From positions 1 to 50,985 of the forward strand of contig JAHFQA010000003.1 in assembly GCA_023266475.1 (NCBI GenBank): 50,985 nucleotides of DNA, read 5' to 3'. Under the pieces are notes generated by a model. It saw only the letters and a program-made list of their open reading frames with translations, was not told the origin of the DNA and did not search any database. The translations under genes were made by a program, and so were the position numbers. The DNA comes from Candidatus Woesearchaeota archaeon (GTDB lineage: Archaea; Nanobdellota; Nanobdellia; Woesearchaeales; GW2011-AR4). Positions 30,779 through 45,076 of this stretch are shown piece by piece. Each line of letters starts with the position of its first letter. Position 1 is the stretch's first letter.

Positions 30779-31015
30779 TTATCCTAAGTTATTCTTCCAC
30801 TTTCTTACTAAAAAATAGAAGAAAATAGCAATTCCAAAAAATGTAATTAAACTAATATTTCCACTTAAGATTAAATTCCTTTCATTTTTCTCACGCCACC
30901 ATATGTAATTAGCCGCATAACCTCCAAAAAATCCAAATAGCCCAAAAATTAAACTTAATAGTATAGTTAATCCCCGTTCTCTTTTACATTCTTTTTCTTT
31001 TTTTGATATTTTCAT
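30779..31015 (-). CDS. Small two-TM membrane protein
   Basis: 78-aa ORF with two hydrophobic helices. No family recognised. Confidence 0.45.
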   Translation of the reverse strand: MKISKKEKECKRERGLTILLSLIFGLFGFFGGYAANYIWWREKNERNLILSGNISLITFFGIAIFFYFLVRKWKNNLG

Positions 31016-31099: not shown

Positions 31100-32125
31100 A
31101 TGAAAAAAGAGGTTCTATTTATAACTTTATTATTTGTGATTATTATTTCTGTTGCTTGTAATAATATAGACCTTTCTAAATTAAGTGATAAAGATTTACA
31201 GCGAGTATCAAAAGAATTAATTGTATGCAACCCGCCTTATATCAGACATGCTTCTAATTGTTGTTTAGATAAAAATGGTAATGCAATTTGTGATAATGAT
31301 GAAAAAGTAAGTGAAACACCTTCAGGGATAAATGCTCCAGTCAAAGAAACACCAGCACAACCTACCCATCCTGAAACTCCAATTGGAAATGAAAAATATA
31401 AATGTAAGAAAAATATTTTATCAGGTTATCCACCATTAGACGAAAATACCAAAAATGAATTAACAAAATGTGCAGGTAATGAACTTTGTTATAAAAGTTT
31501 AATTTCAAAAGGGGCTGTTATAAGTGGTGATAAATTAATACTTCCAGAAAATGCAAATATGAGAATGTGCGAATTAGTTGAGGAACATGATGCATATTAT
31601 GTTTGTTATAGAACTTTTGCTTATGCAAAACAAGACCCATGTATATGTGGATTAGCTGATAACAAAAAATTTAATGATTTATTCCAAGAGGCTTGCTATT
31701 CTGAAGTCGGAAAGGTAATGAATGATGAAAATATATGTAATATGATTACCAATGATAACCCAGAAGCACTTTTTTACAAATCTAAATGTTTAGAAGCAGT
31801 TGGAGTGTCTAAACAGGATGTAAATATATGTGAAACAATACCTTCAGCACAAGGTTATTCTGATAGGAGTTCTTGTTATTTCCAAATAGCTATGATTAAA
31901 CAAGACCCCACAATCTGCCAAAAAGAGTATGCCGATACTTGTTATGGAGAGTTGGGGATAAGAAATAAAGATTTAGAGATGTGTAACAAAGTTGTCAATG
32001 ATATCATATTGAAGGGGCGTTGTTTATATGAAGTGGCAAAAGCTAAACAAGATTCTTCATTATGTAGCCAAATAGTCTATGGTGGTTGGAGAAATCAATG
32101 CAACAAAGATTTCGGTTTAGCTTAG
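31100..32125 (+). CDS. Secreted Cys-rich repeat protein (lipoprotein-like N-terminus)
   Basis: Signal helix ending ...IISVAC, a Pro/Thr linker, then six to seven repeats of C-[YL]-x8-[KN]-[QD]-[DE]-x3-C. Confidence 0.7.
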   Translation: MKKEVLFITLLFVIIISVACNNIDLSKLSDKDLQRVSKELIVCNPPYIRHASNCCLDKNGNAICDNDEKVSETPSGINAPVKETPAQPTHPETPIGNEKYKCKKNILSGYPPLDENTKNELTKCAGNELCYKSLISKGAVISGDKLILPENANMRMCELVEEHDAYYVCYRTFAYAKQDPCICGLADNKKFNDLFQEACYSEVGKVMNDENICNMITNDNPEALFYKSKCLEAVGVSKQDVNICETIPSAQGYSDRSSCYFQIAMIKQDPTICQKEYADTCYGELGIRNKDLEMCNKVVNDIILKGRCLYEVAKAKQDSSLCSQIVYGGWRNQCNKDFGLA

Positions 32126-32175: not shown

Positions 32176-32817
32176 TCAAAACAATCCCAGCAAATTGAGA
32201 AACTGCTCTTTTGATTCGCATTTGAAATAAGGATTATTTTTCTTTTCATTCCCGATTGTTGAGAATGGAATTTCCCCATAATTATGCCCCGGATAGATTT
32301 CAATATGGTCATCTAATTTTTTCAGCTTCTGCAAACTTTCAAACAATTTTATTGAATCGCCGCCAGCCAAATCTGTTCTTCCGATTGCATTAACAAACAA
32401 AGTGTCTCCTGTTAACAACTTTTTTTCAACAATAAGGCAGATTGCGCCAGGAGTATGGCCAGGGGTATGTATAATTTTTATTTTTATGTTTCCAATTTTT
32501 ATTTCATCATTGTTTTTTAGTGTGGCTGCTTTTATTGAATCAGTGTTAATAGTCTTTTTAATCTCATCAAAATCCAATTCATGGCAATACACAGTTGAAT
32601 TTGTCGCTTCGGCCAGCTTATTAGTTTTCTGGATATGGTCAAAATGAGAATGAGTCAAGATTATTTTTTTTATTTTCAGGTTTTCTTTATTTGAAATTTC
32701 TATTAATTTATCAACTTCCCATCCTGCATCGACAACAGCAGCTTCTTTTGTGTTTTCGTCTCCTATTAAATATACAAAATTCTGCATCGGGCCGACTGGA
32801 ATTTGATGGAATATCAT
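32176..32817 (-). CDS. MBL-fold metallo-hydrolase (glyoxalase II-like)
   Basis: THSHFDH metal motif, HTPGHTPG, and GDTLF. Confidence 0.88.
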   Translation of the reverse strand: MIFHQIPVGPMQNFVYLIGDENTKEAAVVDAGWEVDKLIEISNKENLKIKKIILTHSHFDHIQKTNKLAEATNSTVYCHELDFDEIKKTINTDSIKAATLKNNDEIKIGNIKIKIIHTPGHTPGAICLIVEKKLLTGDTLFVNAIGRTDLAGGDSIKLFESLQKLKKLDDHIEIYPGHNYGEIPFSTIGNEKKNNPYFKCESKEQFLNLLGLF

Positions 32818-33179
32818 TTTACAAATTCTACATTTGCCAAATTCTCAAATTGTCCGTCACCTGTAAGAAATTTAAAGTTATGCTTCAATGATAATGTATA
32901 GCCGACACAGTCCGTTAATGATAAATCTATTTTTTTATTTATATGCCTAAAGTAAATTGCCCCTACAATAATTTCTGGAGTTATCTCCAAAAGCTTAAAA
33001 TTAGAATTGTCAAACCATTCATCCGCTGATATTTTTCCATCCTTCCTCAATATGAGCTGGTATATTTCCCCTATATTCAAAACACTGGTTACAATTTCAA
33101 ATTCTTGAAATCCTTTATAAGAAGGGTTAATTCCATTATCCATTTCTATGATGGCGTAAGAATCAAAAAAATATGTCAT
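32814..33179 (-). CDS. vapC: PIN-domain toxin VapC
   Basis: PIN acidic residues in context (YFFDSYAIIE, LTDCVGY, LTGDGQF). The ATG at 33179 lies 7 nt after the antitoxin stop. The track ORF extension to 33215 overlaps vapB. Confidence 0.8.
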   Translation of the reverse strand: MTYFFDSYAIIEMDNGINPSYKGFQEFEIVTSVLNIGEIYQLILRKDGKISADEWFDNSNFKLLEITPEIIVGAIYFRHINKKIDLSLTDCVGYTLSLKHNFKFLTGDGQFENLANVEFVK

Positions 33180-33186
33180 TTTTATA

Positions 33187-33414
33187 TTAAAAACCCACAT
33201 TAAATTCTTTGTCAATTTCCCTCATTAGCTTCTCAGTAGGCTCTTTAAATTTAAAAGTACCCCAAATATCTTTCCCTTTGGTTATAGGTTTTGTGCTTAT
33301 CATTAATATAATTTCTTGATTCGGCTTTATATTTTCTTCTTTAACTACTTCTTTGGGTATCAATACGCCTATGGAATTTCCCCATTTCTTTGTTTTGACT
33401 TTTATTTCCATCAT
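33187..33414 (-). CDS. vapB: AbrB/SpoVT-fold antitoxin VapB
   Basis: KKWGNSIGVLIPKEVV looped-hinge-helix signature. Immediately upstream of the PIN gene. Confidence 0.8.
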   Translation of the reverse strand: MMEIKVKTKKWGNSIGVLIPKEVVKEENIKPNQEIILMISTKPITKGKDIWGTFKFKEPTEKLMREIDKEFNVGF

Positions 33415-33454: not shown

Positions 33455-34198
33455 CTATGCAACTTTCCTTGCAAAGCTCAAAAATCCTGAATGCCCAATG
33501 CCTTTTGACTTTGGCCTTACTTTTCTTTCTTCGACTTCCCACTCCCTTTCAATTAACTCAATCGTCTTGATATAAACATAATTTTCATTATTCCTCAAAG
33601 CATTTACAAAATCAGCGACTTGTGGAATTGAAGGGCTGTAAGACACCAAAAAACCGCCTGAGTTCAGCGCCCTTGCACAATTATCTAAAGCCTTCCAAGG
33701 CTCAGGGACATCAAGAGTTACTACATCAATACTTCTTTCATCAATTTCTTCGTAAATGTTCTTATTTTTTATTTTAATGTTTTTCAATCCTAAAAATTCA
33801 ATATTTGACTTGACAATCTCAATAAAATCTTCCCTTATTTCATAAGTAACGACTTCTTTTGCTAAACTTGCCAGGAAACAGGACAATGCTCCTGAGCCAG
33901 AGCCAGCATCAAGAATCTTGCTTTCCTTGTTAATGCCAGTTTCAGCTATAATCAATCCAATGTCCTTTAAAGGAATTATCTGTGCGTCTCTTTTTATCTT
34001 TTTGTACACATCAATAAAAGCTGGGCTGAATATATAGAATTCCTTGTTGGTATTTGACTTAATCAAGTCGCCTTCATTTGCTTTTTTGAGATCGTCTTTT
34101 TTTATATAGCCGTATTGCGTATGCAAATCCTGATTGAGATCCTTTGCATAGAACTTTCTGCCCTGCTTTGTAATAAGAACTCTTTGGATATTTGTCAT
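33455..34198 (-). CDS. trmI: tRNA (adenine-N1)-methyltransferase TrmI/Gcd14 family
   Basis: N-terminal beta domain plus SAM motif ILDAGSGSGALS and VTLDVPEPW. Confidence 0.85.
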   Translation of the reverse strand: MTNIQRVLITKQGRKFYAKDLNQDLHTQYGYIKKDDLKKANEGDLIKSNTNKEFYIFSPAFIDVYKKIKRDAQIIPLKDIGLIIAETGINKESKILDAGSGSGALSCFLASLAKEVVTYEIREDFIEIVKSNIEFLGLKNIKIKNKNIYEEIDERSIDVVTLDVPEPWKALDNCARALNSGGFLVSYSPSIPQVADFVNALRNNENYVYIKTIELIEREWEVEERKVRPKSKGIGHSGFLSFARKVA

Positions 34199-34252
34199 AA
34201 TAAAAAAGAAAGAAAGAAAGAATCTATAAAAATTTAATCAAAAAAAGCAAGT

Positions 34253-34480
34253 TTACTTCCTGCCTTTTTTCATTTCGCTTCCTTGGCAGTGGCTGCATGC
34301 AGGCATTGCCAGCTTCATTACGCCTTTGAGTATTAACAATACCCCTAGTACGTGCCAAATATACATTGACCAGTACATAGCCGTCAATAGCACCACAATT
34401 CCTACTACTATAAATTTACCTCCCCAACATTTTGCACACATACCATCATGACACATTGCATCCATGTTTAACACCTCCAA
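34253..34480 (-). CDS. Small Cys-rich two-TM membrane protein
   Basis: 75 aa. CHDGMCAKC at the N-terminus and CSHC at the C-terminus flank two TM helices. Confidence 0.5.
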   Translation of the reverse strand: MEVLNMDAMCHDGMCAKCWGGKFIVVGIVVLLTAMYWSMYIWHVLGVLLILKGVMKLAMPACSHCQGSEMKKGRK

Positions 34481-34760
34481 GTGTTGAATTGTATTACATT
34501 AAATTAGGAGTATTTAAACTTTGCTATTTTAAGCAGTAAATCAAAAACAAAAGATTTAAAAATAGTAAATATTAGTTCTTAATAAAAGTACTACTAACTG
34601 TTAAATTTAAATATTGATTATTAAAATTCAATTATTTAATTATAAAAAAAGATTTATAAATTGAATAAAAAAACTATTCAATTATAAATAAATAATATTT
34701 AACTATAAAAAAAGATTAATCAATAATAAAAAATAAGTGACTATTTATAAAAAATAGACA

Positions 34761-35282
34761 ATGCTATCATTATCTGACAACGAATTTAGTGTAATTAGCT
34801 TTCTTGTTAGAAATTTCACTGAAAGGCTTACAATACGCAATATTGCTCAACGACTGGGCTTTAGTTCAGCAGGAGTCTTTAATATTCTGAAAAAACTGGA
34901 AAAACAGAATATTGTAATTGGCCAAAAGCTTGGAACTGGGTTGTTCTACCAAATCAATTTTGACAGCAAGATTGCAGAGCATTTGGCTGGAATTGTGCTC
35001 CTTTACTCTGATGAAAAACTTGACAAGATTGAAAATGGGCAGATTAAGCACGCAAAGGCAGCTATTCTTGACAAAAAAAATTTGCTTTTGCTAGTAGACA
35101 ATGTTACGATCCCTGAAATTTCAATTCCGAACATAAATATTATTGCAAAAACAGAAGATGAGCTAGTTGGATTGTTTAGAAAACGAGATCCTGACACGCT
35201 TCAACTACTAAAGAAGGGCGTAGTCTTGTTTGGCGAAGATAAGATTGTTGAGATTATAAAAAATTGCAGTTCAAGGTTTTAG
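34761..35282 (+). CDS. wHTH protein with degenerate minimal-nucleotidyltransferase-like C-terminal domain
   Basis: wHTH (LTIRNIAQRLGFSSAGVFNILKKLEKQNIV). The C-terminus resembles MNT proteins (AAILDKKNLLLLVD, LLKKGVVLFGEDKI) but lacks the GS...DxD catalytic motif. Confidence 0.6.
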   Translation: MLSLSDNEFSVISFLVRNFTERLTIRNIAQRLGFSSAGVFNILKKLEKQNIVIGQKLGTGLFYQINFDSKIAEHLAGIVLLYSDEKLDKIENGQIKHAKAAILDKKNLLLLVDNVTIPEISIPNINIIAKTEDELVGLFRKRDPDTLQLLKKGVVLFGEDKIVEIIKNCSSRF

Positions 35283-35435
35283 AATGAAAATAACAAAAAT
35301 AATCTTGCCTAACTCCTTAGCTACAGATTCAAGCTCATTGGGAATCTCAACTCTTAGTTTAGCCATATCATCACCTTCATATGAAAATATACTAGAATTG
35401 GCTGTATGATTATTTAAAACTTTCGCTGAAACAAA

Positions 35436-38400
35436 ATGAAAATACTAAATAAAAAGTTGACAAGTAGTTTAATTTTGATATTCATATTACTTTCAACTGT
35501 CATTTATGCCAGGCCGGTAACAGACATATTCTCAGGCGGCTTAATTCAAATTAATAATTTTTTTGAGAATGAAGGCTATGCTCCATATGCAAAAGCTATT
35601 GACTTTTTCTTCTTTTCAATTCTGTTTATAGCAATCTATATGATGGGCGCAAGGTATGCCTTTAAGGAAATCAAAAGGCCTGAGCAAGTTATTGTGATCT
35701 TGCTTGGGCTGATGACAGCTTTCCTGCTTGTTCTAGCTGATATTTCAGCTGTAATATTGCTGCCGTATATTCAGTGGCTTCTTTATACGTTGCTGTTTAT
35801 CCTGTATTGGTGGCTGTTGAAAGGCATCCAGAATAAATTCTGGCGATTTGTTTTGGCGTTGCTTTTGACAATATTGACAATTGCTTTGATTCAAGGGTTG
35901 TTTAATACATTAACAGCGCCTCAAGCTCCTGAGTTAGGTGTTCCATCATTTGGATTAGGAGGAATTGGCGGCTTTTTCAAGGATTTGTTTGGAAGCTTTA
36001 AAGGAATTGACTTAGGCGGAGTTTCAGCGCCTGGCGTGCCTCCCTGGATGAAGGATTTGTTTGGATTGCCTTCTGTTACAACACCAACTGGACCAACTCC
36101 GTTGCCAGGTATAACAACACCCGGAGGAGGAGCTGGCGGTGGTGCTGGAGGAGGTGGTGGTATAGGGGGAACTCCTTGGTACAAAAATCAATGGACATAT
36201 CTTATTCCATTGGCAATTCTGCTGTTAGCTCTTGCAATTTGGGGAGGGGCTAAATTAAGAAAAAAAGGTGAGGGGAAGAAAGAGGAGGAAGGAAAAGAAG
36301 CAGGAAAACAACAAACAACAGAATCTATTGAGATTCAGAAAATAATACAAGAAATAGACGTATATTTGAAACTAAAGTATGAAATTCTTAAAAAAATTTA
36401 TATAATATACAAAAGAAAAAATCTGCTGAATCCTGACCCAACAGAATATTATTCACTTGATAAATATCATAAAAAAATTAAAGAACTTTTGGATAAAGAT
36501 GCATCTTATTTGCTCGACCCAGATACACATACCGGCCAAGATCTTTTTGAGGAAGGCAATAAGGTACACGAGCTGATAAAAACAGAAATTGGACTTGGAA
36601 AAGCCCTTGTTGAACTGCTCAGCATGGAGTATAAGCTAAGCGGCTTTAAAGATAAAAAAGGAGATATCCAAAAATGGGCAGAATCAACCATAAAAGAATT
36701 TGTCAAGTCTAAAGAAGAGTTTGATAGCAAAACTGATGAGTATAAGCAATACCATAACCAGCTTATGGCTTATTTTAACAAATTGGTAAAAATTTCTGAT
36801 AACGCAAAATCAAATATACATGATTATTTTGAAATTACAAAAAAGCATATTGAAAAAGAACAGGAGTTAGAGAAATTACTTGATCCAAAGAAACTTGAGG
36901 AATTGGTAAAAACGGCAAGGGTCAAGCAATGGCTTGAATTGGTTGAAATCAAAACCGTGGAATCACGTAATTTTTCCGGGATATCCAAATTTGTCAAAGA
37001 TGAAAGGGATTTCTTGAAGAAGTATTTATTTCCTGCAATAAATCAGGAAAGAGGCTACCTCAGGTATATCAAAAGGCTAATAGAATTATTAGCCTCTAAA
37101 ATGGAAATTAAGGTGATTGTACAGGACTTGAAGGTTTATGAGAAAGGGATATTGGAAGGGGAGGAAAAATGGTCAGATATAACAGAATCAAGACTAAAAC
37201 CCGGAATCAAGTATGGAACTGAGATTAAAGTTGCAACGCGTGTATTCAGGGGTCCTGAATCTGGAGAATTAAATCCCAGATTCATCGCCCAATGTTATGT
37301 TTACAAATATGCTTCTGACAAAACTGAAAGTGAAATTCATCCTGGCGGAAGACCTAAGCCACCTTGGATTCCAATAAAGAAAACTAAAAATATGTCTAGC
37401 ATAGAGTTTAGAAATTTGATAGAAAAATACAAACAAACAGAAGAGTACAAAAAGAAGCTAGAAGAATATGAAGATGCAATTAACCAACGCAACATTCAAT
37501 TACTTCTACACACAAAACCTGTACAAAAAACTATAGAAGAAGTGCTAGAATTTGAATCTACCAAGGATTTTGGCACATTAGAGCCTGGAAAATATAAAAT
37601 AGTTGTATATGTCAAATCTATTTTGAAGGAGCAAGAACTTGCGATGAAGGAAGACTTGGCCCTTCAGAATAAAGATAATCCTAACTATGTTAATCTAGAT
37701 TACCCGAATGCTTTAACTAGATACGGATGGGATACAAAGCATGTAGATATTTTTATACAAAGCCTGCCTGAAACAAAAATAGAAGTTGAGATAGAGCCAA
37801 AAGAAGTCAGAAAGAAAATTAAAAATGAAGAAGGGATTGATGAAGGAACTGATTTCAAAATTACTGTTACAGCTATTGAAGGAAAGCCGCCATTTACAGT
37901 CTATTATGATATTCTAAAAGATCCTATCATTGGAGCTGAAAATCCGCCTATTTTTGTTTTGGAGCGGCCGATTCATGTTGATCTTAAAGATCCTTATATC
38001 TTTACTCAAAGGATAATAATCAGCAATCTGGATGATAGGTATTTGAATAAAGACAAAAATTACTTAATCCATGGAAAATACCTTATTCGAATTTATGTAA
38101 CGGGCTCTTCTGGAATTGAAAGATTGGACAAAAAAGATGAAACAATTAAGATAATAGTAAAAGAGCCCCCTAAGACGGAAATAAGCGATTTAATTATAAG
38201 CAAGCATGTCCCCAAGAGAGTAATAGACATTAGACTCGGAAATATAGGCGAAAATTTTAAGTGGAAAGATATAACAAATACTGCTTTAAATCCTGGAATT
38301 AAATATAGAACACCAATAAAAATTTCAACGAAAATACTGAAAGGAATTTCAACATTAACAGCTTCTTGCGAGATATTCATAAAGAGGAGGCCTGGTGATA

Positions 38401-39989
38401 TGAGTTATGTTATGGGTCTTATTGACAATCCTGACGAAATGGAGAAAATTTATCCCGGGTTTGTAATCCCACCTTCTAAGCTGATACCGACAGATGCAAA
38501 AGAAGTCGAATTCAGCTCCGGAGAATTTGGAAACCTTGCACTAGGTGAGTATAAGATATATATTTCTGTTGAAGGTTATGATATAGCAAAGAAGTCAATT
38601 GATATTAAGATTATAAAAACTAAAGAACAAATTATAGAAGATGATAAAAAAGCAAGAGAAAGGCAATTACTCCTAAATGCGGATGAACAAGAAGTCTTCA
38701 AAAAATTACAGGAATTTTTATTGAGAATAGAAAAAATAAATTCAGCATTTGAGAAATTAATAGAAAGTGAAGGAGATATAAACTCCCACACTGCAAGGCA
38801 AATTTCAAGGGCAAGGGACGAATTGAAATTGGTTAATTATGATACTGATTCGGCAATTGATATTATTAGGATTTTAAACGATAATGAAGCTGTAGAACAT
38901 ATTATATATGAAATAAAGAGAAAACAAGGAACCAATTCAGGATGGTATGTTTATTATTATGGCACAAATGCATTTGAATTTATCAAATCAACACTAATTC
39001 CTTATATTGAAGATAAATTAGAGAGACTTGAAAGAATAGCTGAAAATCCTTATTTGGCTGATGAAACAATATTTAAGAGGCCCGAAGAATTAATACAACA
39101 GCCTCTTCAACCACCTATAATAATTCTGGAACCATTAGAAAACTCAAGCCATGCAATCGACTCGTATATAAGATTTGAAGCAAGAGTTGTTGGAGCCGAT
39201 GACTTGATAAGTTCAGGAAAAGCAAGCATACATTGGGTTTTAAAGCAAGTTGGAACTGAATGGACACTACTAATCCTTAACATTGATAATCTTGCTCAAA
39301 TCCCATTTGCTGATGTAGATGGCAAAAAGTTTGAGCCCAATAAAGAAGCAGATCTTTCCGTGGGATTATTTGATACCGATGGAAATTTAATAGAAATTAA
39401 TGGCAAGTATATTTTTAACAAAATCTCAATAAAATTAACTCGGCCATTAACGCCTACGACTCGAAAGATTGGGGAAGTTACAGAGCCATTATCAATCCCG
39501 CAGGAAATTTTGAAAAAACCCTTAGCAACCGGCGAAAGAAATAAATATTTTGAAGGATTAGCAAGAAGTCGTAAATTTAGCCAGCCACAACAATATATTC
39601 CAGCTACATCTTCTGAGCTTTTAAATGAATGGGGCGGGTCGCTTGAAAGAAAAGGGGAAAAAGAAGGAGTGGAAAAGAAAAGAAGCTTGGTAAGTGATTA
39701 CAAAAAAGAGTTCTTAGTCATTTTGAATAGTATAAAAGAAGACAGGGCAACATTAAGACAACGGATTAGTAAATCAGGATTAGCAAAAGAAAATATGCAA
39801 GAAGTAAGAAAATTATTAAGTGAACTAGACGAGAATATTGAAAAGGCCGGCAAAACATACAAAAAAATGTATTTAGAATCAGCCAAGAGCAAGATTTACG
39901 ATTTGACATCATTAACTAGGGATGTCCAGAAACCAGTAGGAAAAAGGATAGTAAAAAATAAAACTTTAAATAAAAGTAAAATTAAATAA
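35436..39989 (+). CDS. Giant (1517 aa) polytopic membrane protein with Gly/Pro-rich loop, coiled coils and duplicated beta-rich modules; unknown function
   Basis: Uninterrupted 4.55-kb ORF. About six hydrophobic helices in aa 1-272, a GGGAGGGAGGGGGIGG tract, Lys/Glu-rich coiled-coil stretches, and a repeated KW.DIT...L.PGIKY.T.IK / FG.L..G.YKI module. Confidence 0.8.
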   Translation: MKILNKKLTSSLILIFILLSTVIYARPVTDIFSGGLIQINNFFENEGYAPYAKAIDFFFFSILFIAIYMMGARYAFKEIKRPEQVIVILLGLMTAFLLVLADISAVILLPYIQWLLYTLLFILYWWLLKGIQNKFWRFVLALLLTILTIALIQGLFNTLTAPQAPELGVPSFGLGGIGGFFKDLFGSFKGIDLGGVSAPGVPPWMKDLFGLPSVTTPTGPTPLPGITTPGGGAGGGAGGGGGIGGTPWYKNQWTYLIPLAILLLALAIWGGAKLRKKGEGKKEEEGKEAGKQQTTESIEIQKIIQEIDVYLKLKYEILKKIYIIYKRKNLLNPDPTEYYSLDKYHKKIKELLDKDASYLLDPDTHTGQDLFEEGNKVHELIKTEIGLGKALVELLSMEYKLSGFKDKKGDIQKWAESTIKEFVKSKEEFDSKTDEYKQYHNQLMAYFNKLVKISDNAKSNIHDYFEITKKHIEKEQELEKLLDPKKLEELVKTARVKQWLELVEIKTVESRNFSGISKFVKDERDFLKKYLFPAINQERGYLRYIKRLIELLASKMEIKVIVQDLKVYEKGILEGEEKWSDITESRLKPGIKYGTEIKVATRVFRGPESGELNPRFIAQCYVYKYASDKTESEIHPGGRPKPPWIPIKKTKNMSSIEFRNLIEKYKQTEEYKKKLEEYEDAINQRNIQLLLHTKPVQKTIEEVLEFESTKDFGTLEPGKYKIVVYVKSILKEQELAMKEDLALQNKDNPNYVNLDYPNALTRYGWDTKHVDIFIQSLPETKIEVEIEPKEVRKKIKNEEGIDEGTDFKITVTAIEGKPPFTVYYDILKDPIIGAENPPIFVLERPIHVDLKDPYIFTQRIIISNLDDRYLNKDKNYLIHGKYLIRIYVTGSSGIERLDKKDETIKIIVKEPPKTEISDLIISKHVPKRVIDIRLGNIGENFKWKDITNTALNPGIKYRTPIKISTKILKGISTLTASCEIFIKRRPGDMSYVMGLIDNPDEMEKIYPGFVIPPSKLIPTDAKEVEFSSGEFGNLALGEYKIYISVEGYDIAKKSIDIKIIKTKEQIIEDDKKARERQLLLNADEQEVFKKLQEFLLRIEKINSAFEKLIESEGDINSHTARQISRARDELKLVNYDTDSAIDIIRILNDNEAVEHIIYEIKRKQGTNSGWYVYYYGTNAFEFIKSTLIPYIEDKLERLERIAENPYLADETIFKRPEELIQQPLQPPIIILEPLENSSHAIDSYIRFEARVVGADDLISSGKASIHWVLKQVGTEWTLLILNIDNLAQIPFADVDGKKFEPNKEADLSVGLFDTDGNLIEINGKYIFNKISIKLTRPLTPTTRKIGEVTEPLSIPQEILKKPLATGERNKYFEGLARSRKFSQPQQYIPATSSELLNEWGGSLERKGEKEGVEKKRSLVSDYKKEFLVILNSIKEDRATLRQRISKSGLAKENMQEVRKLLSELDENIEKAGKTYKKMYLESAKSKIYDLTSLTRDVQKPVGKRIVKNKTLNKSKIK

Positions 39990-40245
39990 TTTATATCCAA
40001 AATTTTAATTATATGGGAAATTCAAAAAAATTCCCAACCCAACTACAAGATATATGCTACTTACAGCAAACGCAGTTAATTTTCCCAAAAAAAAATGCGT
40101 TTTGTGAACTAATCACTTTTATAAAAATTTAGTTCGTTGGCTAAAAAAGGAGTTCTAGCTTTGGATAATTTTATTAGAATTCAAGTTTAAGCATAAAGTT
40201 TATATATTATATCTTATACATCATTTGAATTATATTATTTATGTG

Positions 40246-40291
40246 ATGTAAAATGGAATTAATTCAGCTGGCAAAAAGGCTTGAAGGATTG
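40246..40291 (+). repeat. 46-bp direct repeat, copy 1 (left boundary of the AbiE cassette)
   Basis: ATGTAAAATGGAATTAATTCAGCTGGCAAAAAGGCTTGAAGGATTG, identical to 41941..41986. Carries an orphan start plus 13 codons (MELIQLAKRLEGL) ending in TAG. Confidence 0.95.
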
Positions 40292-40341
40292 TAGTCAGCA
40301 ACAGTATAGTAATAGAAAGATATATAAATATGTTATGTATT

Positions 40342-40368
40342 ATATTGTTATAAAAAATATAACAATAT
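40342..40368. promoter_or_regulatory. Inverted repeat ATATTGTTATA-AAAAA-TATAACAATAT upstream of abiEi (candidate autoregulatory operator overlapping a TATA-like box)
   Basis: Perfect 11-bp arms, ending 9 nt before the ATG at 40377. Confidence 0.45.
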
Positions 40369-40376
40369 GTGATAAA

Positions 40377-41003
40377 ATGGTATTAAGGCTGCTTGTAAGG
40401 AAACTGGAGTTAACAGATAAGAGATTCATCACAAGGAAAGAACTTAAATCCTACTGCAAAGAATTGAAGCTAGATTATTATACAGCTATACGGTATCTTA
40501 CATCAAACAGCTATTTAATAAGAATTTTGAGAGGCGTATTCTACATTAAGTCCATAGAAGAAAGAAAGCTAAAAAAAATAAATATAAACTATATAGATGC
40601 CTTGAAAGAAGCATTAAAAATTAAAGATGTCAAATGGTACTTTGGGCTGGAGTCTGCAATTAAATTAAATAACCTCACGCATGAATATTTTGCAATTGAG
40701 ACTATTATAACAGATTCAATGTTCAGGCCGAGACCCATAGAAATATTAGGCACAAAGATTAAATTTGTTAAGATAAGCAAGAATTTGTTTGCTTTTGGGC
40801 TTATTGGAAAAGATTTTAAGCACTCAGATATAGAAAAAACATTGCTGGACATTATTTATCTCGGGAAATATAATAATTATTCAGAAGAAGAAATAAGAAA
40901 TAAAATAGTATCTTTACTAAAAAATTGCGAAAAAAGCAAACTAATGAAATATGCAGAACATTATCCCAAAACAGCTAGCAAACTTTTACTCAAATTAATA
41001 TGA
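40377..41003 (+). CDS. abiEi: AbiEi-like wHTH antitoxin (type IV TA / abortive infection)
   Basis: Sits upstream of, and overlaps by 4 nt (ATGA), an AbiEii-type gene. N-terminal wHTH-like segment (FITRKELKSYCKELKLDYYTAIRYLTSNSYLIRILRGVFY). Track start at 40281 is a TTG inside the repeat. Confidence 0.65.
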   Translation: MVLRLLVRKLELTDKRFITRKELKSYCKELKLDYYTAIRYLTSNSYLIRILRGVFYIKSIEERKLKKININYIDALKEALKIKDVKWYFGLESAIKLNNLTHEYFAIETIITDSMFRPRPIEILGTKIKFVKISKNLFAFGLIGKDFKHSDIEKTLLDIIYLGKYNNYSEEEIRNKIVSLLKNCEKSKLMKYAEHYPKTASKLLLKLI

Positions 41004-41926
41004 TAGAAACTAAACTTATAGATTATTTGGCTGAGAAATCTGAAATAAAGAATAAAGGTTTGATTGAAAAAGACTTTATTATTCAATCACTACTAGCTAG
41101 CTTTTCGAAAAACAACTACATCAGCAAAAATTTTGTATTTAAAGGAGGTACTTGCCTTGTCAAGTGCTATCTGGGCTATTTCAGATTTTCAGAAGATCTT
41201 GATTTCACATTTATAAGCCAGAATTCATTTAAGAACAAAAGCGAAAAGGAAATAAGAAGATTGCTGTCTGCTGAGATAAATAAATTGATTGGAATAATTG
41301 TTGATATTTCAAATGCTTACGGGCTGGATTTTAAGGCAGAGAAGCATAATAAAAAGTATGTTGAATTTGGAGGCAGCAATAAATTCTTGACATTAAAGAT
41401 ATGGTATATGTCATCTGTAAATAAACTAGAGCAGTTCATCAAAATTCAAATTAATTTTGTTGAGCTTTTTGTGTACAAATTCAAAAAATTAATAGCAGAG
41501 CCATTGGTTAGTGTTCAAAAAAAAGAGGCTGAATTCTTATTCCCTGATTATTCATATATTTTACTGGCAAAACCAAAATTAACAGTGTATGATACAAGAG
41601 AACTTCTATTAGAAAAAGTACGAGCTATTTTGACAAGAAGGGAAATAAAAGCAAGAGATTTTGTTGATGTATTTCTTATCAATAAAAAATTAAACAAAAA
41701 CATCAGGGCGTTTAAAGAAGGCATTATATTAAAGACCCTATTTATGCTAAAGTATGAAAAATACAGGGAAAACTTAGAAGAGAAAACTAATTTGAAAGAA
41801 TGGGTAAAGGCAGGCCAAGAACATTATCTTCTTTTGAAACCCTTAAATGGATTTGAGCATTTTCTAAGAGAGACAAAATTATTCCTCAACGAGCTTGTAA
41901 GAGAAATCTTAAGGAAACAAGTATGA
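41000..41926 (+). CDS. abiEii: AbiEii/AbiGii (DUF1814) nucleotidyltransferase toxin
   Basis: Family-typical N-terminal NTase motif FVFKGGTCLVKCYLGYFRFSEDLDF and C-terminal LLEKVRAILTRREIKARDFVDVF. Confidence 0.8.
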   Translation: MIETKLIDYLAEKSEIKNKGLIEKDFIIQSLLASFSKNNYISKNFVFKGGTCLVKCYLGYFRFSEDLDFTFISQNSFKNKSEKEIRRLLSAEINKLIGIIVDISNAYGLDFKAEKHNKKYVEFGGSNKFLTLKIWYMSSVNKLEQFIKIQINFVELFVYKFKKLIAEPLVSVQKKEAEFLFPDYSYILLAKPKLTVYDTRELLLEKVRAILTRREIKARDFVDVFLINKKLNKNIRAFKEGIILKTLFMLKYEKYRENLEEKTNLKEWVKAGQEHYLLLKPLNGFEHFLRETKLFLNELVREILRKQV

Positions 41927-41940
41927 ATATAGATATTGTC

Positions 41941-41986
41941 ATGTAAAATGGAATTAATTCAGCTGGCAAAAAGGCTTGAAGGATTG
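41941..41986 (+). repeat. 46-bp direct repeat, copy 2 (spans the true 5' end of the next wHTH gene)
   Basis: Identical to 40246..40291. Contains the ATG at 41948. Confidence 0.95.
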
Positions 41987-42574
41987 CAAACGGTAGACAG
42001 CATAGCCAAAACCCTTGAAATAGACAGAAGAACAGCAATCAATTATGTCTGGAAATTAAGAAAAGATGGCTATGTAGGGACAATTTACGGAAAAAGGAAG
42101 ATAAGAATGTACAGGATATCTCCAATAAGACTTATTAAAACTGGTTATCCGGGACTTTACGAATTCCTGAATCAAAACTCCAGAATTAAAATCTATGCAC
42201 CATATACTAACAGGATTTATGACCATAAGCCAACTGCAGAAGAAATGATAGTAAAAGCTGTTAAAACTGGTGATTTAAGAACCATACTTTCTGCATTAGC
42301 TTTGTTTAATAAAATAAAAGATTGGCCAGTTTTAAGCCAGAGAGCAAAAGAAGAGCATATTGGCAGAAAAATAGGGGCTTTGTACGATACAGCAAGATCA
42401 ATAATGAGGGTTAAAAGAATGGACAAAAGAGCAAGAAAGGCACTCTTAAAGAGTCATGTAAAAGATAAGTTTATAGTGAAAGGCGCAAAAACAAATGACT
42501 TAAAAGATATTGAAAAAGTATGGAAAGTATATCTGCCTTTTAATAAAGCAGATTTGGAGGCCTATAAAATATGA
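41948..42574 (+). CDS. wHTH protein, putative antitoxin/regulator partner of the downstream nucleotidyltransferase
   Basis: N-terminal wHTH (VDSIAKTLEIDRRTAINYVWKLRKDGYV). 4-nt ATGA overlap with the next gene. Track start at 41936 is TTG. Confidence 0.6.
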   Translation: MELIQLAKRLEGLQTVDSIAKTLEIDRRTAINYVWKLRKDGYVGTIYGKRKIRMYRISPIRLIKTGYPGLYEFLNQNSRIKIYAPYTNRIYDHKPTAEEMIVKAVKTGDLRTILSALALFNKIKDWPVLSQRAKEEHIGRKIGALYDTARSIMRVKRMDKRARKALLKSHVKDKFIVKGAKTNDLKDIEKVWKVYLPFNKADLEAYKI

Positions 42575-43260
42575 TTAACTTGCAAGAGCAGATAAGCCTT
42601 TTTAAGATAATAGGGAGCCAGCTCAAAAATAAAGTGGAATGCGTTGCAATAGGCGGCTCCGCATTGATGTTCTATGGAGCAAAAATCACTACAAAAGATG
42701 TTGATTTGGTTTTATTGAAAAGAGAGGATTTAGAAACTGTAAAGAATGTGCTTTTTCATTCGGGGTTTGACGAAAGAAAAAATATTAAAGGCATTTTTAG
42801 GGAAGACGAAGATATGGTCAAACCCATTATGATGGGCGGCAAAGATACAAGGTTTGATCTTTTCTTAAATGAAGTTATAGGCTTCAAAATTCATGAAAAG
42901 ATTATTGAAAGAATTAAAGAAGTTCATGAATTTGGCAATTTCAAAGTAAATATAGCAAGCCCTGAAGATATTTTAATGATGAAAGGATGCACAGAAAGGG
43001 AAAAAGACAGGGATGACGCTGCAGAATTAATAAAAAAATTTAATATTAATTGGGACATTATTCTCGATGAAACATCAAATCAAGCAAAAATTGGGATAGC
43101 TGCTTTTCCAATATTGCTTTATGATTTTTTAACAGAGATAAGGGATAATTACAAGCTAGATGTTCCAAAAAAAATAACAAAAGAACTTCTTTCTATTGCA
43201 AGTAAAAGAATAAAAGAATTAAGGAAAAAGGGCAAGTTGATCAAAGTCACCAAATATTGA
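42571..43260 (+). CDS. Pol-beta-superfamily nucleotidyltransferase (DUF2204/AbiEii-like class), putative toxin
   Basis: NTase signature IGGSALMFYGAKITTKDVDLVL, a third acidic residue in RFDLF, and the helical SPEDILMMKGCTEREKDRDD motif. Confidence 0.65.
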   Translation: MINLQEQISLFKIIGSQLKNKVECVAIGGSALMFYGAKITTKDVDLVLLKREDLETVKNVLFHSGFDERKNIKGIFREDEDMVKPIMMGGKDTRFDLFLNEVIGFKIHEKIIERIKEVHEFGNFKVNIASPEDILMMKGCTEREKDRDDAAELIKKFNINWDIILDETSNQAKIGIAAFPILLYDFLTEIRDNYKLDVPKKITKELLSIASKRIKELRKKGKLIKVTKY

Positions 43261-43429
43261 AAACCACAAGTCAGAAAGATAGCACAAAGGAAAATTCCCA
43301 ATATATATCATACTAACCATTGGTTTTTGAGTATGCTCGAAAACTTTTACAAAATCCAGTGAATAATAAAAAATTCCTATATACAAAAAATAAAACTTTA
43401 TATACTTTAAATGAAATAATAATCTAAAA

Positions 43430-43879
43430 ATGCCAATTCAACAGCAAGACTTGCCGCCGCCTCCTAAAAAAGGCATATTTGGGCATTCGCAGCAGCCTCA
43501 AGGGCCTAGCGTAAGCGATTTGACTTCTGACATGAATACATTCAGCAGGAGATTAAGGCTCTTGGAAGAAGGATTTACAAACCTAAGGAGATTTTTCCAA
43601 GTAACTGAAGAAAACATTTTGGCAAAGAACAAGCATTACTCTGCTGAAATAAAGACAATAAATTCTGACATCACTGAAATAAGGAAGGAAATGCAGGAAA
43701 CAAGAGACAAGCTGGTTCTTGTAATCAGGGAATTGCAAACGTGCGCAAGAAAGGAAGAAGTCAAAGTGCTTGAAAAATACATAAACCTATGGAATCCTGT
43801 GAAGTTTGTAACCCAAAATGAGGTTGAGCAAATTATTGATGAAGTTCTGGAGAAAAAAGGCAGTAATAAAACAAATTGA
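43430..43879 (+). CDS. Coiled-coil protein with Pro/Gln-rich N-terminus, unknown function
   Basis: 149-aa ORF with heptad-like charged sequence. Its stop abuts the stop of the convergent MNT gene. Confidence 0.55.
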   Translation: MPIQQQDLPPPPKKGIFGHSQQPQGPSVSDLTSDMNTFSRRLRLLEEGFTNLRRFFQVTEENILAKNKHYSAEIKTINSDITEIRKEMQETRDKLVLVIRELQTCARKEEVKVLEKYINLWNPVKFVTQNEVEQIIDEVLEKKGSNKTN

Positions 43880-44503
43880 TTATCTTTCTTTAATAATATC
43901 AGATTCTAAAATTCTTGTCGGAATTAAAATTTGAACCTCTAGATAATCCATTTTCCAGCTGTTTAGATAATCTTTAACTTTTTCAGATTCTTCGACTGGA
44001 GAGAGAATAATCCTTTCAGAAAACTTAAATAACTTTAATTTTTTAAGCATACCCTCGCTGTTTCTCCCATATAAGCTGTAATAAAAGCGCATTCTTTGTG
44101 ATTTATTAAAGCTTTTAATATCATATCTGAATAGTACCATGGGTTTATATCCAAGACCATCAGCTATATACTTTCTTTGTACCAAACTGTAACCTTCAGA
44201 AATATAAGATTCTCTGGCAATAAATGCGGAATCAAATAAATCCTTATAGGATTTTTGTACTAAGTCTATTTCAACACCTAAGACTTCAATTGCTTTTTTT
44301 ATTTTGTAACTAAGTTCTGGATTAATTTTTGTTTTATAAATCACAAGTAAATCTAGATCCTTGGGCTTTTCTTTTCCCTTAACTGAGGAACCAAATACTA
44401 CTACGTCCAAGATTTCAACCACATTTTCCTTAACTATATTTTGAATTTTAGATGCTAATTTTGCATTCTTCAATAATTCTTTCCACATTTTTCCTGACCT
44501 CAT
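43880..44503 (-). CDS. Minimal nucleotidyltransferase (MNT) with ~100-aa C-terminal extension
   Basis: VVVFGSSVKGKEKPKDLDLLVIY MNT signature. ATG at 44503 or 44488; either overlaps the HEPN gene end (44448). Confidence 0.8.
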   Translation of the reverse strand: MRSGKMWKELLKNAKLASKIQNIVKENVVEILDVVVFGSSVKGKEKPKDLDLLVIYKTKINPELSYKIKKAIEVLGVEIDLVQKSYKDLFDSAFIARESYISEGYSLVQRKYIADGLGYKPMVLFRYDIKSFNKSQRMRFYYSLYGRNSEGMLKKLKLFKFSERIILSPVEESEKVKDYLNSWKMDYLEVQILIPTRILESDIIKER

Positions 44504-44783
44504 CGCATGTTAATTTATCAATTGTCAAAGAATAAGTTTGCCTGTAGATTGGATAATATTTGTCCAAAATGGAATATTGTTCAGAAAAATTCTCTTTTAA
44601 AATGCTAAATCTTTCTGTATGGTCTTTCGGTGTTTTCCCTTTTTTTTGCAATATTATTAAGTCCAGTACAACAAACAGGCATTTAAAATATAATATAGTT
44701 GAAGAAGTATAATCTCCTGCACTATAAACTATTTCCGCTGAATTCTTGAAACTTTTAATATTTTTAATCAAATCTTCTTTCAT
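44448..44783 (-). CDS. HEPN domain protein (COG2250 type)
   Basis: Helical protein with GDYTSSTILYFKCLFVVLDLIILQKKGKTPKDHTERF and YYPIYRQTY, matching HEPN partners of MNTs. The track ORF (GTG at 44900) runs through the operator region, so I prefer the ATG at 44783. Confidence 0.7.
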   Translation of the reverse strand: MKEDLIKNIKSFKNSAEIVYSAGDYTSSTILYFKCLFVVLDLIILQKKGKTPKDHTERFSILKENFSEQYSILDKYYPIYRQTYSLTIDKLTCDEVRKNVERIIEECKISI

Positions 44784-44896
44784 GTTGGTAGTGGAAACGA
44801 ATAGGTTATTTAAATAGCTTTCGGTTGGTAACACCAACTTTGTTGGTAGGAAAAACATTTTAGCCTTATTTAGACTTTTTTGTTGGTTATACCAAC
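44784..44896. promoter_or_regulatory. Operator array: two GTTGGT-N3-ACCAAC palindromes plus two half-sites around a TTTAAATA box upstream of the HEPN-MNT operon
   Basis: Palindromes at 44824..44838 (GTTGGTAACACCAAC) and 44882..44896 (GTTGGTTATACCAAC). GTTGGTA half-sites at 44784..44790 and 44842..44848. TATA-like 44807..44816. Confidence 0.5.
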
Positions 44897-44917
44897 GCAC
44901 TTAGCATAGAAGCCTAA

Positions 44918-45076
44918 ATACTTACGGAATGTAAGGGCAAATATGAGAAAAAAGGTAGTATTATAGGTCTTGCAGATTTGATTATAGCAAGCCAAGCCAA
45001 GGAATATAATAGGGTATTAGTCACACAGGACAAATCCTTTGAAAAAATATATGAAATCACTAAGGTAAAAGTGTAA
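44918..45076 (+). pseudogene. C-terminal remnant of a PIN-domain (VapC) gene
   Basis: Open frame with no start reads ILTECKGKYEKKGSIIGLADLIIASQAKEYNRVLVTQDKSFEKIYEITKVKV-stop. The LADLIIA....N..LVT.D..F segment is the typical PIN C-terminus. Confidence 0.6.

Follow-up and report, generated by a model that had tools for sequence, protein, structure and literature searches.

Gene organization of the locus

The DNA analysed here is a 50,985-nucleotide stretch of a Candidatus Woesearchaeota archaeon genome (contig JAHFQA010000003.1, positions 1 to 50,985 of the forward strand), referred to below as the window. Within it, a small gene encoding a winged helix-turn-helix (wHTH) protein is followed on the same strand by a gene for a large membrane protein:

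34761..35282, + strand: wHTH gene, 173 residues
35436..39989, + strand: membrane protein gene, 1517 residues, ATG start, uninterrupted open reading frame (ORF)
36288..36288, no strand: recombination breakpoint, where the 97.8% DNA identity with contig L038 ceases

Both ORFs lie where an initial annotation, made from the sequence of the window, had placed them, and the 1517-residue frame is free of interruptions. The region has a GC content of ~33–36%. At ~34% GC about 7% of random codons are stops, and simple arithmetic gives a probability of ~1e-50 for 1517 stop-free codons arising by chance; the long frame is therefore not a chance product. The most unusual feature of the locus, overlooked in the initial annotation, is the recombinational replacement of the part of the membrane protein that lies behind its sixth hydrophobic helix.

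Replacement of the cytoplasmic part

Protein identity to related genomes changes steeply along the locus. The flanking genes GlmS and GCD14 methyltransferase are 80–84% and 75–81% identical, respectively, and the wHTH protein is 66–77% identical. Residues 1–160 of the membrane protein, with 69–84% identity, are on par with GlmS and GCD14. Identity then drops to 49–61% for residues 161–280 and to 25–38% for residues 281–620, and nothing is detectable past residue 620.

This gradient has a sharp counterpart at the DNA level. In a BLASTN comparison, window positions 33533..36288 correspond to positions 1..2772 of contig L038 with 97.8% identity, a span that takes in the methyltransferase, small membrane and wHTH genes and the membrane gene up to residue ~284. 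The identity stops abruptly at 36288, beyond which the two proteins are ~20–40% identical, and the cytoplasmic domain encoded by L038 is nearer to those of other species than to that of the window. The same break, 650–725 nt into the gene, is found in three further pairs (L013/L016, L024/L027 and L019/L023), in two of which homology picks up again 3′ of the stop codon. Thus, in four independent genome pairs DNA homology ends just past the Gly/Pro-rich loop or the sixth helix described below.

Across 53 family members (1378 pairs), similarity in the N-terminal part is decoupled from that in the cytoplasmic part (Spearman 0.19), many pairs combining an identity of 90% or more in the membrane module with one of only 25–40% in the cytoplasmic domain. 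Because DNA identity breaks off at the junction in all four pairs, the cytoplasmic part is a replaceable cassette: the comparisons show the unit exchanged by recombination to be everything past the sixth helix. The wHTH protein does not follow the cassette. Its counterpart in L038 (P0036) is 99% identical to that of the window though the cassettes differ, so the wHTH protein tracks the membrane module and is not a cognate partner of the variable cassette. No template-like repeats that would indicate a diversity-generating retroelement or other repeat-driven variation were found in 34000..45000, and a scan of JGI metagenomes returned no near-identical strains.

Membrane module and topology

The N-terminal part of the membrane protein is organized as follows:

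35436..35510, + strand: signal peptide, residues 1–25, with a K-rich n-region and a hydrophobic core; predicted cleavage after VIYA, before RP
35511..35912, + strand: conserved membrane module, an amphipathic helix (residues 26–48, predicted extracellular) and a four-helix bundle (residues 49–159)
35916..36176, + strand: Gly/Pro/Thr-rich loop, residues 161–247, predicted extracellular, with two KDLFG amphipathic helices and a poly-Gly/Ala tract
36192..36266, + strand: sixth hydrophobic helix, residues 253–277, a predicted stop-transfer anchor followed by KLRKKGEGKK (hydropathy, AlphaFold2, charge bias)

Hydropathy analysis locates helices at residues 7–25, 54–72, 85–103, 105–123, 138–156 and 256–274, and an AlphaFold2 model built from a 33-sequence alignment places them at 6–23, 25–44, 49–75, 81–100, 105–129, 134–159 and 253–277, with predicted local distance difference test (pLDDT) scores above 85 for residues 41–150. 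The four membrane helices after the first, the loop with its repeated KDLFG motif and the sixth helix, all of which the initial annotation had described, are thereby confirmed. Its reading of helix 1 as a signal anchor fares less well. Ala 25 is kept in at least 90% of sequences, the consensus is AYA/KPFT (the slash marking the cleavage site), and helix 1 is better read as a probable cleavable signal peptide because the site, A-Y-A followed by K/R-P, is nearly invariant.

The membrane module contains two basic loops, predicted to be cytoplasmic, and 34 invariant columns, and is modeled with a pLDDT of 84–97. Its helices are rich in Leu and Phe and lack obvious pore-lining polar residues. In the following loop KDLFG occurs at residues 182 and 206 and GGGAGGGAGGGGGIGG at residues 230–245. 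AlphaFold2 predicts two short helices here (176–187 and 203–208) and leaves the remainder disordered, while the motif GFFKSxGxSFKGI...DLFGxP is conserved family-wide. The loop has one copy of a PGITT unit (~36100–36130) in the window but two copies in L038, which indicates variation in repeat-unit length in the predicted outward-facing linker. For the model of the N-terminal part, Foldseek returned nothing better than E = 5 in the PDB and nothing better than E = 1.4 across PDB and BFVD.

The sixth helix is found in all close homologues, always with a cluster of Lys and Arg directly past it. Lys and Arg amount to 3.4 and 2.6 per 10 residues in the predicted inside loops vs. 0.05–0.99 outside. 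Relatives with the same sixth helix carry GT4 glycosyltransferase (E = 7e-14), GT2 glycosyltransferase (4e-13) or PP2C phosphatase (5e-40) domains further downstream, with no clear membrane helix before them and only a marginal hydrophobic segment within the PP2C match of P0005. In the distant member P0218 an FHA domain is followed by a TIG Ig-like domain, again with no membrane helix in between. N-glycosylation sequons in the cytoplasmic part number 5, vs. 5.3 expected. The positive-inside charge bias and the GT4/GT2, PP2C and FHA fusions in relatives thus support a topology in which the Gly/Pro-rich loop would lie outside and everything beyond residue 277 would be cytoplasmic. The initial annotation had noted that the charges fit a cytoplasmic C-terminal part, and the loop charge bias and the enzyme fusions bear this out.

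The large cytoplasmic part

Three regions can be distinguished downstream of the sixth helix:

36288..37145, + strand: fast-evolving, family-wide helical domain, about residues 285–570 (to ~625), with motifs DLYHK, LLDP and KLEKW...RW
37158..38615, + strand: variable region with beta-rich modules at ~575–735, 785–910 and 915–1060, the first and third being mutual repeats
38616..39986, + strand: variable region with a helical segment (1061–1225), a beta module (~1228–1335) and a helical Lys-rich tail (1410–1517)

The helical domain was found by phmmer in ~35 family members and has no relative in the PDB or Pfam. A HEPN identity was considered for it and rejected, with an hhalign probability of 0.2%. 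The boundaries of the beta modules were placed by eye from the sequence, but the repeat itself is well defined: residues 578–661 match residues 942–1034 (BLASTP E = 7e-10), and both copies match the same segment of P0009. The variable region has weak pairwise similarity to four relatives, and the tail resembles P0007 (residues 1230–1517, E = 8e-20) and P0025. For residues 641–1517, a word-indexed search of 5.8 billion clusters returned the query alone.

Per 100 residues the cytoplasmic part contains ~17% Lys plus Arg and ~16% Asp plus Glu, in line with the Lys/Glu richness noted initially. The beta-rich modules proposed alongside it gain from the internal repeat. The coiled-coil content proposed there is overstated, as a crude heptad scan flags only residues 1449–1481, the rest being helical-looking. 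The initial annotation had reported no catalytic motif, and a motif scan likewise detected no Walker A, HExxH, CxxC or GxSxG. Enzyme domains do occur in close relatives, a Peptidase_C1 (papain family) domain in 11 of 33 and glycosyltransferases in ~3 of 33. Giant size had been taken as characteristic of the protein, but with members of 559 to 2180 residues it does not characterize the family.

A winged helix joined to a dead nucleotidyltransferase

The product of the upstream gene consists of two domains:

34761..35006, + strand: wHTH DNA-binding domain, residues 1–82 (Pfam MarR_2, AlphaFold2, Foldseek)
35046..35279, + strand: dead MNT-type nucleotidyltransferase (NTase) domain, residues 96–173 (hhalign, BLASTP)

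The N-terminal domain is a winged helix of the MarR_2/HTH_24 type, scoring 33.3 bits with Pfam MarR_2 over residues 4–52 against a cut-off of 27. The AlphaFold2 model has a pLDDT of 76 overall and 78–93 over residues 1–82, and its Foldseek matches are AdcR, SmtB, CzrA and ZitR (E = 3e-4 to 1e-3). By its winged helix-turn-helix the protein thus belongs with MarR/ArsR-type regulators.

The second domain is recognizable through a neighbouring protein of 196 residues in locus L001 (L001:67-657), which combines a wHTH with a Pol-beta NTase and passes the Pfam cut-offs for both Polbeta and NTP_transf_2. It is followed by a HEPN gene (L001:641-1174), the pair constituting a wHTH-MNT/HEPN toxin-antitoxin (TA) system. 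The wHTH protein of the window aligns along its whole length with this antitoxin (BLASTP E = 1e-12), and the family alignment does so over residues 1–171 with an hhalign probability of 97.2% and E = 3e-11. In the hhalign alignment the G-S of the antitoxin corresponds to D113-N114, its D-I-D to E/D119-I-S/T/A121 and its third carboxylate to A/T/V/S/I129, with ~24 residues deleted. The G-S, the second Asp of the DxD and the third carboxylate are absent in 122 of 122 family members. Mutagenesis has demonstrated that the GSX10DXD motif is needed for MntA activity (PMC7641770).

Because a full-length alignment with a genuine wHTH-MNT protein is combined with loss of the catalytic residues, the C-terminal half is supported as a catalytically dead descendant of an MNT-type antitoxin NTase. 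The initial annotation had recognized an MNT-like domain without its GS...DxD residues, and the alignment and the family-wide loss are in accordance with it. The relationship was detected only with the full-length wHTH-MNT protein from L001. Pfam, PDB profile and sequence searches and Foldseek identified the winged helix and no NTase domain, and in hhalign the C-terminal domain alone stayed below 2% probability against a mixed alignment of three NTases as well as against DUF6036, AbiEi and an HTH protein. The wHTH protein has 359 relatives, all of 172–173 residues, with 69–82% identity among the 120 matches listed.

Linkage, synteny and family range

Of 28 species-representative loci, 26 have the wHTH gene directly upstream of the membrane gene, on the same strand and mostly with a gap of 1–5 nt; one of the remaining two starts at a contig edge. 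In a first set of homologue loci, from contigs also represented among the 28, all five had the same linkage. At the distant loci L007 and L008 there is a 4-nt overlap between the membrane gene and the wHTH gene, whose product has 171–173 residues and 39–46% identity, while the membrane domains of distant members match only at profile E values of ~1e-17 to 1e-19 and ~20% identity. The pairing that the initial annotation singled out for a co-occurrence check therefore holds across species and in distant members.

The unit is present in most related genomes examined. Its upstream flank is part of the core synteny of Woesearchaeota: the window shares with L003–L006 the order GlmS, PEMT-like, GNAT, metallo-beta-lactamase, GCD14 and a small membrane protein of 70–75 residues with Cys motifs, followed by the wHTH and membrane genes. 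A profile search of 1.84 billion representatives returned 202 relatives of the membrane protein, no annotated family among them. All relatives belong to the Woesearchaeota, the Nanoarchaeota/Nanoarchaeia or a single family of Micrarchaeia, and the family is thus confined to DPANN archaea. A few of the assemblies bear the label 'uncultured Methanosarcinales', yet they share at least 80% identity in their genes with Woesearchaeota metagenome-assembled genomes.

A second genomic context occurs in L028, L009, L049 and partly L008, where the membrane gene comes after the unknown families X1 (481–555 residues) and X2 (396–813 residues, with a GLDENG.PLEV motif), with ATPase_2 in two loci. A helical protein of 303–358 residues and a four-helix membrane protein of 120–128 residues are also found in this neighbourhood, and a PAC2-family gene (named after proteasome assembly chaperone 2) lies near the L008 and L009 loci. 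The alternative-context neighbours in L008 and L009 have no Pfam assignment, and neither X1, X2 nor their associates occur in the window. Several neighbours (L008:9739-12220, L009:8028-8939) have C-termini of the kind KLAA, RMAA, RAAA or KAA, that is, a basic residue, any residue and Ala-Ala. Similar ends are present in family members P0004, P0013, P0024, P0167, P0170 and P0171, whereas the window protein ends otherwise. The basic-x-Ala-Ala end may be a shared C-terminal recognition signal.

Intergenic elements

Two intergenic segments accompany the genes:

35283..35435, + strand: spacer between the wHTH and membrane genes, 153 nt
34741..34760, + strand: conserved motif CTATTTATAAAAAATAGACA (family consensus ATATTAATAAAAAATAAACA), promoter-proximal and abutting the wHTH start codon

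The length of the spacer is unusual, as the gap in most other genomes is 1–5 nt. It contains a 41-codon ORF (35284..35409) that starts 1 nt past the wHTH stop codon, at the place where the membrane gene begins in other genomes. The same 41-residue ORF is called in contig L038 as well, and it may represent either a small gene or a remnant. An AT-rich, TATA-like stretch ~20–25 nt upstream of the membrane gene ATG is a candidate promoter of that gene.

The block directly before the wHTH ATG is common to the upstream regions of ~25 loci. At ≤3 mismatches the motif has its sole match in the window here, although at least one match arises in 14 of 100 shuffles. Positions 34741..34760 are a candidate TATA-to-start region or operator.

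Neighbouring genes and insertions

Downstream of the unit lie AbiEi and AbiEii genes (PADLOC E = 3e-48 and 2e-60), a pair encoding an HTH protein and DUF6036, and an NTase gene. The initial annotation had placed the membrane gene at the edge of a TA/abortive-infection (Abi) islet. The PADLOC matches confirm the AbiEi/AbiEii module. Downstream content differs in every genome, being made up elsewhere of PIN TA pairs, glycosyltransferases or unknown reverse-strand genes, and the islet is therefore, to judge from these neighbourhoods, an incidental variable neighbour outside the two-gene unit.

The AbiEi/AbiEii genes (40281..41926) are flanked by a 50-nt direct repeat, 98% identical between its copies at 40242–40291 and 41937–41986, the second of which forms the 5′ end of the HTH gene (41936..42574). 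This gene and the following DUF6036 NTase gene occupy 41936–43260 (+), and L006 has the HTH and DUF6036 pair without AbiE. The AbiE cassette therefore resembles a 1.7-kb insertion whose arrival duplicated the beginning of this pair. Further downstream, a gene for a Polbeta/NTP_transf_2 protein (43880..44503, −; module 43880–44900) overlaps a 150-residue ORF that has no family match.

Several features also mark the upstream side. A PIN/MazE TA pair (32814–33414, −) lies between the metallo-beta-lactamase-fold and GCD14 genes and represents a second small TA insertion, because its flanking genes are directly adjacent in L003–L006. A gene for a Cys-rich protein of 341 residues (31100–32125), with a signal peptide and no Pfam match, and a small membrane ORF (30779..31015) are inserted between the GNAT and metallo-beta-lactamase-fold genes relative to relatives. 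Divergent from the wHTH gene is a gene for a 75-residue membrane protein (34253–34480, −) with CHDGMCAKC and CSHC motifs; 15 of 28 related loci keep it at the same place, and it matches no family above threshold.

Proposed role and alternatives

The reading that we favour, at a probability of roughly 0.45 and hence tentatively, is that the membrane protein serves as an anchored platform for a variable payload, with a repurposed antitoxin as its regulator. The membrane protein is built in three layers. An envelope module conserved at housekeeping level comprises the signal peptide, predicted to be cleaved, the amphipathic helix, four-helix bundle, Gly/Pro-rich loop and stop-transfer helix; behind it lies the family-wide, rapidly diverging cytoplasmic helical domain; and the third layer is a strain-specific cytoplasmic payload, made up here of Ig-like beta modules and helical segments and in relatives of a papain-like peptidase, GT4/GT2, a PP2C phosphatase or FHA-TIG. 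Whereas this anatomy, the dead NTase, the gene linkage, the restriction to DPANN archaea and the cassette replacement follow from the comparisons above, the mode of action is inferred. The membrane module would fix the protein to a conserved site in the envelope, perhaps sensing there through the two outward-facing amphipathic KDLFG helices, and would hold the variable modules, binding or enzymatic, beneath the membrane. The wHTH/dead-MNT protein, with its predicted DNA binding, would autoregulate the operon, its MNT fold perhaps kept as a non-enzymatic docking surface for the conserved, not the variable, part of the membrane protein. The helical domain and payload would bind or modify targets under diversifying selection, which, given the cassette turnover, may be of a conflict type involving viruses, hosts or competitors.

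Several observations weigh against this reading. Both the DNA binding of the wHTH protein and its contact with the membrane protein are putative, and the predicted topology draws on prediction together with homologue fusions, while the relatives include some with typically extracellular domains (PKD, CarboxypepD_reg, SdrD_B, SLT, OmpA). Pfam, NCBIfam and PDB scans revealed neither a catalytic motif nor a known domain in the payload of the window protein itself. The close member L028 and the distant L009 and L049 have no wHTH neighbour. Finally, cassette turnover could in part be a by-product of the adjacent variable islet and not of selection on the protein.

Among the alternatives, a TA or abortive-infection module, with a membrane-damaging module, a cytoplasmic infection sensor and the wHTH/dead-MNT protein as repressor or non-enzymatic antitoxin, is unlikely, if far from negligible. 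Descent of the first gene from a wHTH-MNT antitoxin, the TA-like order of an antitoxin-like gene translationally coupled to a following effector, rapid cassette replacement resembling the sensor turnover of immune genes, the gathering of TA and defence genes beside the locus in several genomes, and sub-threshold GT4-conflict matches in two relatives would all fit. However, the unit occupies a fixed syntenic place in nearly every related genome with housekeeping-level conservation, unlike sporadic defence islands; the membrane protein has no PADLOC match and is not found on viral contigs (IMG/VR); and Leu/Phe-rich helices with no obvious pore-lining polar residues are not what a membrane-damaging protein would suggest. 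A platform for envelope or glycan biogenesis, in which swapped cytoplasmic enzymes would make or modify variable surface structures in the manner of replacement glycosylation islands, is distinctly unlikely. GT4 and GT2 are fused to the module in P0004, P0013 and P0029, a GT2 protein of 1242 residues is encoded immediately downstream in L003, GlmS is within the conserved upstream flank, and the locus behaves as a replacement island with conserved flanks. Yet glycosyltransferases occur in the small minority of close homologues given above, compared with 11 for Peptidase_C1, library scans reveal no enzyme domain in the window protein, and the linkage to GlmS may be mere synteny.

The remaining explanations differ in where the payload would act. 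We consider it very unlikely that the protein is a surface adhesin or host-interaction protein with its large C-terminal part outside the cell. Such a role would suit the Ig-like beta modules, the PKD, TIG, CarboxypepD_reg, SdrD_B, SpaA, SLT and OmpA domains of relatives and a hypervariability typical of exposed proteins, but the Lys/Arg cluster past the sixth helix and the loop charges fit an inside orientation, GT4/GT2, PP2C and FHA domains occupy the same position with no intervening membrane helix, and sequons are not enriched; a weak extra hydrophobic segment before the PKD domain of P0023 could put only that domain outside. Delivery to another cell as a polymorphic effector, with an N-terminal trafficking module and the C-terminal cassette as payload, seems highly improbable even though polymorphic toxins are typified by C-terminal cassettes that recombine behind a conserved N-terminal part (PMC3482391) and relatives carry peptidase, glycosyltransferase and phosphatase payloads: there is no conserved immunity-like gene downstream, neither a toxin tip nor a demarcation motif could be recognised, the predicted orientation turns the payload towards the cytoplasm of the producer itself, and the cassettes exceed 1000 residues and have a helical domain in common. 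The most far-fetched idea is that of an episymbiont's membrane-borne, cytoplasm-facing effector that diffuses laterally across a cytoplasmic bridge or fusion to present its strain-specific payload (binding modules, papain-like peptidase, glycosyltransferase or phosphatase) in the partner's cytoplasm. Its conserved outward amphipathic Gly-rich helices would engage the partner membrane, and the dead antitoxin domain would prevent the payload from acting in the producing cell; if true, a host arms race would explain the toxin-like replacement of the cytoplasmic domain.

The locus bears on lineages that account for much of archaeal diversity: in DPANN archaea, the majority of conserved genes still lack an assigned role. 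Here a regulator gene and a membrane module are conserved at about housekeeping level and have no relative in any curated library. One reading frame fuses a slowly evolving core membrane module with a cytoplasmic part that is exchanged as a cassette between otherwise near-identical genomes. Diversifying replacement of an inward-facing domain is hard to fit to standard models of surface variation, and for this reason suggests that these symbionts have an interface of conflict or interaction not recognised so far. A further point is the repurposing of an MNT antitoxin, which the unit documents, as the catalytically dead partner of a non-HEPN protein. With a predicted promoter, a small protein predicted to bind DNA and an expressible membrane module, it offers a concrete handle on the biology of Woesearchaeota.

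Comparison with known systems

The initial annotation had called the membrane protein uncharacterised, and library searches agree. Scans of all 1517 residues with Pfam, NCBIfam, PHROGs and PADLOC gave nothing above threshold, and PDB searches with the whole sequence and with a profile of residues 281–630 returned low-complexity and coiled-coil noise only. The IMG/VR viral collection contains no relatives of the membrane protein, and PADLOC-DB gave only wHTH-level matches for the upstream gene and no match for the membrane protein. In the literature on DUF2070 and on hypervariable, giant or MarR-linked membrane proteins of DPANN archaea, nothing describing the family was found. DUF2070 (PF09843) comprises archaeal predicted membrane proteins. 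Sub-threshold matches to the membrane-helix region were obtained in 5 of 65 distant members (best 15 bits against a cut-off of 30) with none in the window protein, and are no more than a hint of a possible relationship. A VirB6/TrbL-like role, conceivable from the polytopic helices and Gly/Pro-rich region, was rejected on finding no Pfam signal in the protein or 65 relatives and no Foldseek fold match. Membership among giant surface adhesins was likewise rejected, the window protein having no above-threshold adhesin domain and a C-terminal part predicted to lie inside.

The closest likeness of the upstream gene is to MntA of HEPN-MNT (HepT/MntA, type VII) systems. Both have a wHTH and a Pol-beta-type NTase fold with homology over the full length, and both are the upstream member of a tightly coupled pair. 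The proteins differ in that MntA has GSX10DXD, whereas the protein here has DN...D/E-I-S, a lost third carboxylate and a ~24-residue deletion. The partner of MntA is a HEPN RNase with an Rx4-6H motif, whereas the partner here is a polytopic membrane protein with no Pfam HEPN match. Thus, of three features that define MntA, the NTase fold is present and the catalytic motif and adjacent HEPN toxin are missing. HEPN-MNT loci are, moreover, mobile, whereas this locus is core and syntenic.

Polymorphic toxins such as CdiA-CT and Rhs, with the conserved N-terminal part and recombining C-terminal cassettes described for them (PMC3482391), resemble the membrane protein in having a C-terminal part exchanged at a fixed junction, with peptidase or other enzyme domains among the variants. 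They carry a secreted or surface-exposed toxin domain at the C-terminal tip, whereas the variable part here is predicted to be cytoplasmic and no toxin domain was found in the window protein. They also have a cognate immunity gene immediately downstream that co-varies with the tip, whereas the downstream genes here differ per locus (AbiE, PIN TA, GT2 or unknown), and the cassettes of the membrane protein are very large and, unlike those of polymorphic toxins, contain a shared helical domain.

A small wHTH gene next to a polytopic membrane protein with an extracellular element and a cytoplasmic domain is also reminiscent of BlaR1/BlaI. BlaR1/BlaI and MecR1/MecI are pairs of a membrane sensor and a winged-helix repressor. 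The likeness is one of analogy only, as there is no homology and no zinc-protease motif, the gene order is different and the regulator here carries a dead NTase.

At the level of the genome, the locus recalls replacement-type flexible genomic islands, in which variable glycosylation or surface islands lie between conserved flanks. Conserved flanks and divergent content that includes glycosyltransferases are common to both. The difference is that the 5′ boundary here lies inside a coding sequence, making one protein a chimera of core and flexible parts. On these comparisons, and with the topology as predicted, we rate the family as one that probably stands outside the known kinds of system.

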